DNA of 55,680 nucleotides, from NCBI GenBank assembly GCA_032718475.1, contig JAUCBJ010003409.1, positions 1-55,680 on the forward strand, read 5' to 3'. The position numbers and the translations under genes were made by a program. The DNA is from Nemertoderma westbladi. Lineage: Eukaryota > Animalia > Xenacoelomorpha. Under the pieces are notes generated by a model. The model had not been told where the DNA came from, did not search any database, and worked only from the letters and a program-made list of their open reading frames with translations. How positions within the stretch are numbered: the first letter of the stretch is position 1; every line of letters begins with the position of its first letter. This document shows positions 21,983 through 47,633 of the stretch, in pieces.

Positions 21983-24900
21983 TGAACTAAACCCAGTTTG
22001 GCTGGTAGGTACTGAATTAACCCATTTTGGAAGGTAGGTACTGAACTAACCCAGTTTGGCTGGTAGGTACTGAATTAACCCAGTTTGGCTAGTAGGTACT
22101 GAACTAACCCAGTTTGGCTAGTAGGTACTGAATTAACCCAGTTTGGCTAGTAGGTACTGAATTAACCCAGTTTGGCTGGTAGACTGAATTAACCCAGTTT
22201 GGCTGGTAGGTACTGAACTAACCCAGTTTGGCTGGTAGGTATACTGAACTAACCCAGTTTGGCTGGTAGGTACTGAATTAACCCAGTTTGGCTGGTAGGT
22301 ATACTGAACTAACACCATTTAGCTGGTAGGTACTGAATTAACCCAGTTTGGTTGGTTTGGTAGGTACTGAACTAACCCAGTTTGGCTGGTTGGTAGGTAC
22401 TGAACTAACCCAGTTTGGCTGGTAGGTACTGAATTAACCCAGTTTGGCTGGTAGGTACTGAATTAACCCAGTTTGGCTGGTAGGTACTGAATTAACCCAG
22501 TTTGGCTGGTAGGTACTGAATTAACCCAGTTTGGCTGATAGGTACTGAACTAACCCAGTTTGGCTGGTAGGTATACTGAACTAACCCAGTTTGGCTGGTA
22601 GGTACTGAATTAACCCAGTTTGGCTGGTAGGTATACTGAACTAACACCATTTAGCTGGTAGGTACTGAATTAACCCAGTTTGGTTGGTTTGGTAGGTACT
22701 GAATTAACCCAGTTTGGTTGGTTTGGTAGGTACTGAACTAACCCAGTTTGGCTGGTTGGTAGGTACTGAACTAACCCAGTTTGGCTGGTAGGTACTGAAT
22801 TAACCCAGTTTAGCTGGTAGGTATACTGAACTAACCCAGTTTGGTTGGTAGGTACTGAACTAACCCAGTTTGGCTGGTAGGTACTGAACTAACCCAGTTT
22901 GGCTGGTAGGTACTGAACTAACCCAGTTTGGCTGGTAGACTGAATTAACCCAGTTTGGCTAGTAGGTACTGAACTAACCCAGTTTGGCTGGTAAGTATAC
23001 TGAACTAACCCAGTTTGGTTGGTAGGTACTGAATTAACCCAGTTTGGCTGGTAGGTACTGAATTAACCCAGTTTGGCTGGTAGGTACTGAATTAACCCAG
23101 TTTGGCTGGTAGGTACTGAACTAACCCAGTTTGGCTAGTAGGTACTGAATTAACCCAGTTTGGCTGGTAGGTATACTGAACTAACACCATTTAGCTGGTA
23201 GGTACTGAATTAACCCAGTTTGGCTGGTAGGTACTGAATTAACCCAGTTTGGCTGGTAGACTGAATTAACCCATTTTGGCTGGTAGGTACTGAATTAACC
23301 CAGTTTGGTTGGTAGGTACTGAATTAACCCAGTTTGTCTTGTAAGTACTGAACTAACCCAGTTTGGCTTGGAGGTACTGAACTAACCCAGTTTGGCTGGT
23401 AGGTACTGAATTAACCCAGTTTGGCTGGTAGGTACTGAATTAACCCAGTTTGTATTGTAAGTACTGAACTAACCCAGTTTGGCTTGGAGGTACTGAACTA
23501 ACCCAGTTTGGCTTGGAGGTACTGAACTAACCCAGTTTGGCTGGTAGATACTGAATTAACCCAGTTTGGCTGATAGGTACTGAATTAACCCAGTTTGTAT
23601 TGTAAGTACTGAACTAACCCAGTTTGGCTTGGAGGTACTGAACTAACCCAGTTTGGCTGGTAGGTACTGAACTAACCCAGTTTGGCTAGTAGGTACTGAA
23701 TTAACCCAGTTTGGCTGGTAGGTATACTGAACTAACACCATTTAGCTGGTAGGTACTGAATTAACCCAGTTTGGCTGCTAGGTACTGAATTAACCCAGTT
23801 TGGCTGGTAGACTGAAATTAACCCAGTTTGGCTGGTAGGTACTGAATTAACCCAGTTTGGCTGGTAGGTACTGAATTAACCCAGTTTGTCTTGTAAGTAC
23901 TGAACTAACCCAGTTTGGCTTGGAGGTACTGAACTAACCCAGTTTGGCTGGTAGGTACTGAATTAACCCAGTTTGGCTAGTAGGTACTGAATTAACCCAG
24001 TTTGGCTGGTAGGTACTGAATTAACCCAGTTTGTCTTGTAAGTACTGAACTAACCCAGTTTGGTTGGTAGGTACTGAACTAACCCAGTTTGGCTGGTAGG
24101 TACTGAATTAACCCAGTTTGGCTAGTAGGTACTGAACTAACCCAGTTTGGCTGGTAGGTATACTGAACTAACCCAGTTTGGCTGGTAGTTACTGAACTAA
24201 CCCAGTTTGGCTGGTAGGTATACTGAACTAACCCAGTTTGGCTGGTAGGTACTGAACTAACCCAGTTTGGCTGGTAGGTATACTGAACTAACCCAGTTTG
24301 GCTGGTAGGTATACTGAACTAACCCAGTTTGGCTGGTAGGTACTGAACTAACCCAGTTTGGCTGGTAGGTACTGAATTAACCCAGTTTGGCTGGTAGGTA
24401 TACTGAACTAACCCAGTTTGGCTGGTAGGTACTGAATTAACCCAGTTTGGCTGGTAGGTATACTGAACTAACCCAGTTTGGCTGGTAGGTACTGAATTAA
24501 CCCAGTTTGGCTGGTAGGTACTGAATTAACCCAGTTTGGCTAGTAGGTACTGAATTAACCCAGTTTGGCTGGTAGGTACTGAATTAACCCAGTTTGTCTT
24601 GTAAGTACTGAACTAACCCAGTTTGGCTTGGAGGTACTGAACTAACCCAGTTTGGCTGGTAGGTACTGAATTAACCCAGTTTGGCTAGTAGGTACTGAAC
24701 TAACCCAGTTTGGCTGGTAGGTACTGAATTAACCCAGTTTGGCTGGTAGGTATACTGAACTAACCCAGTTTGGCTGGTAGGTACTGAACTAACCCAGTTT
24801 GGCTGGTAGGTATACTGAACTAACCCAGTTTGGCTGGTAGGTACTGAACTAACCCAGTTTGGCTGGTAGGTATACTGAACTAACCCAGTTTGGCTGGTAG

Positions 24901-26182
24901 GTAATACTGAACTAACCCAGTTTGGCTGGTAGGTACTGAACTAACCCAGTTTGGCTGGTAGGTACTGAATTAACCCAGTTTGGCTGGTAGGTATACTGAA
25001 CTAACCCAGTTTGGCTGGTAGGTACTGAATTAACCCAGTTTGGCTGGTAGGTATACTGAACTAACCCAGTTTGGCTGGTAGGTACTGAATTAACCCAGTT
25101 TGGCTAGTAGGTACTGAACTAACCCAGTTTGACTAGTAGGTACTGAACTAACCCAGTTTGGCTGGTAGGTACTGAACTAACCCAGTTTGGTTGGTAGGTA
25201 CTGAACTAACCCAGTTTGGCTGGTAGGTACTGAATTAACCCAGTTTGGCTGGTAGGTATACTGAACTAACCCAGTTTGGCTGGTAGGTACTGAACTAACC
25301 CAGTTTGGCTGGTAGGTACTGAACTAACCCAGTTTGGCTGGTAGGTACTGAATTAACCCAGTTTGGCTGGTAGGTACTGAATTAACCCAGTTTGTCTTGT
25401 AAGTACTGAACTAACCCAGTTTGGCTTGGAGGTACTGAACTAACCCAGTTTGGCTGGTAGGTACTGAATTAACCCAGTTTGGCTGGTAGGTACTGAACTA
25501 ACCCAGTTTGGCTGGTAGGTACTGAACTAACCCAGTTTGGCTGGTAGGTATACTGAACTAACCCAGTTTGGCTGGTAGGTACTGAACTAACCCAGTTTGG
25601 CTGGTAGGTACTGAATTAACCCAGTTTGGCTGGTAGGTATACTGAACTAACCCAGTTTGGCTGGTAGGTACTGAACTAACCCAGTTTGGCTGGTAGGTCC
25701 TGAACTAACCCAGTTTGGCTGGTAGGTATACTGAACTAACCCAGTTTGGCTGGTAGGTATACTGAACTAACCCAGTTTGGCTGGTAGGTACTGAACTAAC
25801 CCAGTTTGGCTGGTAGGTACTGAATTAACCCAGTTTGGCTGGTAGGTATACTGAACTAACCCAGTTTGGCTGGTAGGTACTTAACTAACCCAGTTTGGCT
25901 GGTAGGTATACTGAACTAACCCAGTTTGGCTGGTAGGTATACTGAACTAACCCAGTTTGGCTGGTAGGTATACTGAACTAACCCAGTTTGGCTGGTAGGT
26001 ACTGAACTAACCCAGTTTGGCTGGTAGGTACTGAATTAACCCAGTTTGGCTGGTAGGTATACTGAACTAACCCAGTTTGGCTGGTAGGTACTGAACTAAC
26101 ACAGTTTGGCTGGTAGGTATACTGAACTAACCCAGTTTGGCTGGTAGGTACTGAACTAACCCAGTTTGGCTGGTAGGTACTG
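21983..26182 (-). repeat. 29/31-bp satellite, ~140 copies, derived from the TTBK exon end plus splice donor
   Basis: Minus-strand unit cagtacctaccagccaaactgg|gttagtt is the last 22 nt of exon 26161-26315 plus the first 7 nt of the intron. Confidence 0.95.
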
Positions 26183-26315
26183 GTATTTTTAGCGGAGAAC
26201 TATGAAGCGCGTTTGCGTTACTGTCCTTGGTAGATGGTGTTTTCTCCCAGTCGTACGGCGCATCCACACTAATGTTCTTCCTACGAATGCTGTCCGTAAA
26301 ACAGCTCCGAAGTAA
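26161..26315 (-). CDS. TTBK: TTBK exon, end of kinase domain (LLRSCFTDSIRRKNISVDAPYDWEK...KIPVPTSQT-G)
   Basis: CK1/TTBK PYDWEK motif. Acceptor tttgtttag| and donor GG|gttagt. 155 nt. Confidence 0.9.
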
Positions 26316-47518: not shown

Positions 47519-47528
47519 GGATACTTAC

Positions 47529-47633
47529 TGGTCTGACTTGTCCCGCCGTGTTGGTATATTGCCTCGCCAAGCCGAAGTCCAACATGTAAACCTTCCTTGG
47601 ATTCCCACTGCTTCTTCCCATTGCAAAATTGGA
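47529..47633 (-). CDS. TTBK: TTBK exon ([35 protein letters not shown])
   Basis: SNFAMGR...[13 protein letters not shown] motif. Acceptor tttttag| and donor CCA|gtaagt. 105 nt, phase 0-0. Confidence 0.96.

Follow-up and report, generated by a model that had tools for sequence, protein, structure and literature searches.

Tandem arrays whose repeat unit spans an exon-intron boundary, and which thus reiterate a splice site, have been described in both human and lancelet genes. As far as the accessible text of the source goes, the 37-bp variable number tandem repeat in intron 7 (IVS7) of human F7 begins with a unit that spans the exon 7 donor, and only the most upstream of its five to nine identical donors is used (PMC1557585). 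The same text cites human 6-16, with 25 spare sites of which the nearest two are also used, intron 13 of CBS, with 15 to 20 units and two spare sites in use, and LAMIN B2 and PDGF as further cases. In lancelets, 'mirages' are reported from Adh3 (units of 10 to 72 bp), the globins BflGb6 and BflGb9, and troponin C; according to the accessible parts of that paper, they are found at 5′ and 3′ exon borders, leave splicing undisturbed and arise by a mechanism that its authors call unclear (PMC3087553). In lancelet PGBD5, repeats of 60 bp and of 108 bp form unrelated arrays, one at each of two 5′ splice sites (PMC3902484). Human genes in segmental duplications carry internal tandem repeats at exon-intron boundaries, with units of ca. 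30 bp and about four units on average, that are linked to new introns or longer exons (PMC2812944). Here, we describe two far larger arrays of this kind in a tau-tubulin kinase (TTBK) gene on the minus strand of a 55,680-nucleotide stretch of Nemertoderma westbladi DNA (assembly GCA_032718475.1, contig JAUCBJ010003409.1, positions 1 to 55,680; hereafter the window). Judged by their sequence, these arrays belong to the published class of mirages or junction minisatellites, so that the arrangement is not unprecedented, as had been assumed in the original prediction made from the sequence of this window.

The two arrays and the exons from which they derive are the following:

37069 to 45592, minus strand: array 1, 8.5 kb, with units of 42/46 bp; Tandem Repeats Finder (TRF) period 42, 194.3 copies.
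47529 to 47633, minus strand: TTBK DFG exon, 35 codons, with array 1 seeded by the final 32 nt; the authentic donor is CCA/GTAAGT (donor 1).
21983 to 26182, minus strand: array 2, 4.2 kb, with units mostly of 29 and 31 bp; TRF period 29, 142.1 copies.
26161 to 26315, minus strand: TTBK PYDWEK exon, phase 0 to 2, with array 2 seeded by the final 22 nt; the donor is TGG/GTTAGT at 26160 (donor 2).

Both arrays run head to tail with units of minisatellite size, and their sequences are unrelated to each other. The array 1 unit consists of the terminal 32 nt of the DFG exon and 10 nt of donor and intron sequence, that of array 2 of the last 22 nt of the PYDWEK exon and another 7 nt, and within the window these units are confined to the arrays and their own exons. 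Array 1 holds 195 spare donors, of which 182 retain the authentic 9-mer; among the 141 spare donors of array 2, the authentic 9-mer is found in 78 and a G-to-A change at position +5 in 57. Altogether, 260 of 336 spare donors are thus identical to the authentic 9-mer. When 80-nt probes for both ends of the nine exons of TTBK and the neighbouring Meis gene were compared with the window, only two of 18 matched multiply, and both were donors (195 and 139 high-scoring segment pairs, HSPs); the other 16 gave a single match each, and none of the nine acceptors is amplified. The original prediction had anticipated much of this anatomy: TRF returns its coordinates for two unrelated arrays, the exon-derived 32 and 22 nt, the distal copies and the short repeats at the unit borders agree with what it had described, two of six donors are indeed amplified more than 100-fold with the coding frame intact, and its figure of over 300 extra donor-type sites compares with the 336 that we counted.

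The distal copies of both arrays pass into ordinary intron, and the breakpoints show microhomology of 3 bp (CAA) in array 1 and 2 bp (CA) in array 2. For random duplications of 25 to 50 bp in the window, the joint chance of such breakpoints is ca. 0.02 to 0.03, which we take as a mild sign of slippage or microhomology-guided repair. Internally, the 194 units scored in array 1 include 100 of 42 bp, 75 of 46 bp and 15 of 45 bp and fall into 38 types, while array 2 comprises 30 types; substitutions relative to the commonest unit amount to 1.1% in array 1 and 3.9% in array 2. A run of 17 unit types in array 1 is found again 1,315 bp away, which fits unequal exchange.

Array 1 does not directly adjoin its exon, because a retrotransposon that had been overlooked in the original prediction intervenes:

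45593 to 47518, plus strand: 5′-truncated non-LTR (long terminal repeat) retrotransposon of the long interspersed nuclear element (LINE) type, 1,926 bp, antisense to TTBK; RVT_1 E 8e-28.
47519 to 47531, minus strand: exon-side copy of the LINE target-site duplication, 13 bp, which contains the authentic donor.
45580 to 45592, minus strand: array-side copy of the target-site duplication, 13 bp, which is followed by a repeat junction and not by intron.

The fragment has a short TAG-repeat tail and an exact 13-bp flanking duplication, and its 5′ truncation is apparent from loose contig ends that show other copies extending further 5′. It belongs to a very high-copy family (summed depth of ca. 1e6 compared to 13 to 40 in the flanks) and, among protein clusters, matches only unnamed RVT_1 clusters. 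The array-side copy of the target site holds only three exon bases, whereas the units of array 1 hold 32, and it continues into a repeat junction; at least the first duplication of array 1 is therefore older than the LINE insertion, and authentic donor 1 is preserved as the exon-side target-site copy.

The TTBK gene comprises six exons in the window, the last of which is predicted, with an intact reading frame. Besides the two exons listed above, these are:

48922 to 49136, minus strand: exon from the kinase N-lobe to HRDIKP, phase 1 to 0, with the unamplified donor GTTAGT; Pkinase E 1e-5.
36058 to 36216, minus strand: exon ending in KIKDK, placed by the frame chain, domain search and homolog alignment.
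26552 to 26677, minus strand: exon EQVG...PDYE, placed by the frame chain and homolog alignment.
20757 to 20933, minus strand: putative next exon, open only in the phase supplied by donor 2.

All exons have AG/GT ends, and their phases (1-0-0-0-0-2-2) link up without a single stop. The exon at 48922 to 49136 is 76% to 83% identical to TTBK proteins among the 120 matches listed, which are nearly all from vertebrates, and the two differences listed for a second sample across the exons are both synonymous. Donor 1 is well anchored by homology at a boundary common to vertebrate TTBKs: the alignment to human TTBK1 reaches residue 192 at 47529, and shark TTBK1 picks up with residue 193 at 36216. Across this point, 102 of 120 homologs are contiguous, while five of 120 are without exactly the DFG exon and two partial models terminate exactly there. 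Donor 2 is likely genuine. It splits a glycine codon 27 residues past the DWEK motif; of the 106 homologs with this motif, 100 have a conserved glycine at that spacing, and one fish TTBK model shows an insertion immediately past the corresponding glycine. Its grading as likely reflects that it lies in a poorly conserved region, that it was placed by spacing and phase, and that the next exon is without homologs: none was found for 20757 to 20933 among 26 candidates, and a comparison of 40 long TTBKs with the window yielded no further exon at useful E-values (two weak HSPs, E 0.1 to 0.2). The donor GTTAGT is present at three of six TTBK donors (48921, 26160 and 20756, minus strand), and this donor type therefore seems common in N. 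westbladi.

Use of any spare donor in either array is predicted from the reading frame to introduce a premature stop. Translation past donor 1 would terminate within the antisense LINE, at codon 75; the nearest donor of array 1 is 1,939 nt away. At array 2, the second donor causes a frameshift, and the next exon then has a stop three codons from its start; every donor beyond it includes an in-frame TAG at 26129. All 100 of the 42-bp units of array 1 are stop-free in the exon frame, and before the LINE inserted a slip to the second array 1 donor would presumably have lengthened the activation segment by 14 residues. We consider it likely that the arrays are harmless, with the first donor predicted to remain in use. 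Arrays of this kind can mislead gene prediction, as array 1 units translate as near-copies of the kinase exon end.

Contigs from four sequencing runs (X1, X2, X3 and X5; X1 may be the source of the window, and X2 and X3 represent one other sample) were compared over positions 45505 to 49300, with the exons lying outside the coverage of the X5 contigs; none of the contigs spans the LINE. Words of 31 letters from array 1 units reach depths of 1,308 in X1, 172 to 295 in X2 and 666 to 1,996 in X3 against 13 to 16, 21 to 30 and 26 to 41, respectively, in neighbouring single-copy bins; this word depth is not a copy number, and the contigs give no array length, but in two samples array 1 units are present in multiple copies. 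The X2 and X3 contigs end at 47532, as would be expected from the word size because exon words there become common with the array. One X1 contig ends at 47542, beside a synonymous position (47541-47542) where the exon departs from the array majority and where the exon's own base is found in 14 of 194 array 1 units. Such an end would be expected if a second allele carried the array-type base.

The window as a whole is rich in tandem repeats: seven arrays make up 49% of its bases, and most of this sequence is unrelated to junctions, with three other minisatellite families devoid of junction sequence. One of these lies in the same gene and serves as a control for the local context:

27159 to 35050, no strand assigned: purely intronic 34-bp array in TTBK, 236 copies, with a 22-bp perfect palindrome and no junction sequence.

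Another intronic array, with a unit of 33 bp (8023 to 11110; 94 copies), is likewise free of junction sequence; a donor-like word is present in its unit, but we rejected it as a junction copy because no open frame lies upstream. The single matches of 16 of 18 junction probes also rule out the remaining arrays as junction copies. Under a null model of uniformly placed seeds (five minisatellite families, 28,385 non-array bases and six to ten donors, with base composition ignored), the probability that at least two of five families span a donor in this window is 0.0004 to 0.0017, an uncorrected local value for a window that was picked post hoc from some 250,000 for showing the pattern. The exons have a GC content of 0.50 compared to 0.39 in other non-array DNA.

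We think it probable that the arrays are two locus-specific mirages that were begun by microhomology-guided duplication, were grown by repeat turnover and are spliced out via the first donor. They would have started as short tandem duplications of an exon end together with its 5′ splice site, through slippage or end-joining at microhomologies, and would then have expanded by ordinary repeat turnover, presumably unequal exchange, in a repeat-prone genome. Exclusive use of the first donor would remove the arrays along with their introns, and any mis-spliced RNA would be expected to decay. The presence of two arrays in one gene would be a lucky draw in an array-rich region, possibly helped by a mild bias of seeds to the GC-richer DNA at exon edges. 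The stop-free frame chain, the conserved boundary at donor 1, the mixture of unit variants, the duplicated blocks and the 2 to 3 bp shared at the breakpoints all support such a history, as do the synonymous nature of the two exon differences, the three array families devoid of junction sequence, the premature stops predicted for the spare donors and the published precedents for harmless arrays and first-donor use. Four points weigh against it. Neutral survival does not predict that two of five families span donors, and it leaves the low local probability unraised because purely intronic arrays survive equally well. The copy numbers are five to eight times the largest published figure found (26 donors in 6-16), which makes first-donor fidelity an extrapolation; according to the accessible text of PMC1557585, the nearest spare donors are also used in human 6-16 and CBS; and donor 2 is placed by spacing and frame rather than by transcripts. 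The original prediction had offered two origins, survival of junction-spanning duplications through a first donor that still works or a mutational process that targets donors. Of these, survival agrees with F7, the lancelet mirages and the intact frame, whereas donor targeting is without direct support, because mirages occur at both exon borders, PGBD5 has two, and the arrays that fill 49% of the window are mostly unrelated to junctions. There is no positive evidence for donor-specific targeting in the window, though it may still play a part, since survival alone does not predict an excess over purely intronic arrays.

A broader form of the latter idea, in which a process linked to transcription or splicing (breaks at R-loops or pausing sites, repaired with short templated duplications) makes minisatellites arise preferentially at splice junctions and selection only filters the outcome, would account for two of six TTBK donors and two of five minisatellite families being affected at a local P of 0.0004 to 0.0017, and for amplified acceptors being absent (0 of 9). 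According to the lancelet paper, it is unclear how mirages arise, and they may be a general phenomenon in lancelets (PMC3087553). We nevertheless regard this bias as unlikely: the pattern comes from a single window picked post hoc, nothing in it points to R-loops, and the GC-richer exons (0.50 vs 0.39) are an alternative source of bias. Acceptor-side mirages have also been published, as for BflGb6 (PMC3087553), and a donor-only process is therefore unneeded. The fuller proposition that minisatellites are born preferentially at 5′ splice sites by transcription- or splicing-linked duplication and that splicing chooses faithfully against 140 to 195 identical downstream donors seems to us somewhat more doubtful still. 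Copying from spliced mRNA is ruled out because the units include intron bases. Intron gain by tandem duplication of a proto-splice site was likewise rejected, as there is no new intron position, the donor 1 boundary is common to vertebrate TTBKs and both arrays enter a pre-existing intron.

It is improbable, in our estimate, that the arrays are functional and tune TTBK output via U1 binding, slower splicing or routing to decay, or that, before the LINE inserted, the 42-bp units might have extended the activation segment by repeats of 14 residues. The authentic 9-mer kept in 260 spare donors and the 100 stop-free units would fit, yet recent turnover already predicts high unit identity, 75 units have a frame-breaking length of 46 bp, 57 donors of array 2 have lost the G at +5, the LINE and its stop separate array 1 from the exon, and the published cases are, in the accessible sources, mostly silent. 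We see still less in favour of a release of array 1 by the LINE, whose 1.9-kb spacing would have ended donor competition and left a short mirage free to reach 8.5 kb. In its favour, one duplication predates the LINE, as told by the repeat junction after the target-site copy, the exon's own variant is present in just 14 of 194 units, and the units of array 1 vary less than those of array 2 (1.1% vs 3.9%); array 2, however, reached 142 copies without any insertion, and edge units are known from the accessible part of PMC3087553 to escape homogenisation regardless. The least credible explanation in our view is that the arrays are assembly artefacts. Neither is spanned by any contig and the read support covers array 1 only, yet unit-word depth of array 1 is far above single-copy bins in X1, X2 and X3, and the distinct unit types, 38 in array 1 and 30 in array 2, follow recurrent patterns.

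The surroundings of the TTBK gene hold several further features. Exons of a Meis/homothorax homeodomain gene lie on the minus strand at 7782-7525, 7060-6984, 1381-1323 and about 90-1, and its N-terminal exon was not found in the 48 kb upstream, a stretch occupied by the same-strand TTBK gene; TTBK could be nested within an intron of Meis, some Meis exons might have gone unnoticed, or pieces that do not belong together might have been joined in the assembly. Beyond the Meis donor at 1323, an in-frame extension (1323-1252, minus strand) shows 81% identity over the HSP to an elephant-shark Meis1 isoform, which suggests a conserved alternative donor. Inside a Meis intron and on the same strand, an intronless frame of 232 codons (3604-4302) encodes an N-terminal RING finger (E 4e-5) and may represent a retrocopied RING gene of the Polycomb group. 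A 157-codon frame (16525-16998, plus strand) with a weak RYYR-CCHC match (E 5e-4, under the cut-off) lies between two 53-bp arrays that are inverted relative to each other (14611-15782 and 17617-19576), and together these probably form a foldback-type transposon with tandem subterminal repeats. A fragment of a piggyBac-like transposase (54589-55204, minus strand; DDE_Tnp_1_7, E 8e-10) lies in the intron that precedes the first observed TTBK exon.

Among the described systems, F7, 6-16, CBS, LAMIN B2 and PDGF resemble TTBK in that a first unit lies across the exon-intron boundary and the donor is reiterated, and the preference for the most upstream donor in F7 matches the use of the first donor that we predict for TTBK. 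The human cases have 5 to 26 donors, and F7 units hold four exon bases compared to 22 to 32 in TTBK; in TTBK, a LINE also intervenes between array 1 and the DFG exon, and use of any spare donor is predicted to end in a stop. TTBK shares with the lancelet mirages a minisatellite-like duplication of a boundary including its splice signal, in an invertebrate gene, with overlapping unit sizes and internal variants. The globin mirages comprise only two to six units as opposed to 142 and 195 (4.2 and 8.5 kb) in TTBK, and the lancelet set includes acceptor-side arrays and had its splicing checked by RT-PCR, whereas the TTBK arrays are known from sequence alone. In PGBD5, just as in TTBK, one gene carries two unrelated arrays that are both at 5′ splice sites; these have two to seven and three to six imperfect copies, and no retrotransposon is reported in the accessible text. 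The repeats of segmental-duplication genes likewise have minisatellite units of ca. 30 bp at borders of gene structure, with the difference that no change of gene structure is evident in TTBK. Junction-spanning arrays are not described in the accessible parts of PMC10078293 and PMC12783039, and we found no genome-wide test of donor versus acceptor enrichment of such arrays in a literature search that most subscription papers lay outside of. If there were junction enrichment beyond survival, it would give a first handle on the origin of mirages that the lancelet paper left open, and if junction-biased birth and faithful donor choice both held, this genome would be a natural test bed for mirage origin and first-donor selection. 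The TTBK locus already offers a substrate for asking whether the first-donor selection seen in F7 with at most nine sites holds against 141 adjacent donors. What sets it apart from the described systems is its scale, with 142 and 195 copies where the largest published figure found is 26, together with a dated LINE insertion: a known repeat class attains a far greater size, and an internal clock is provided by the LINE, whose target-site duplication bears the donor.

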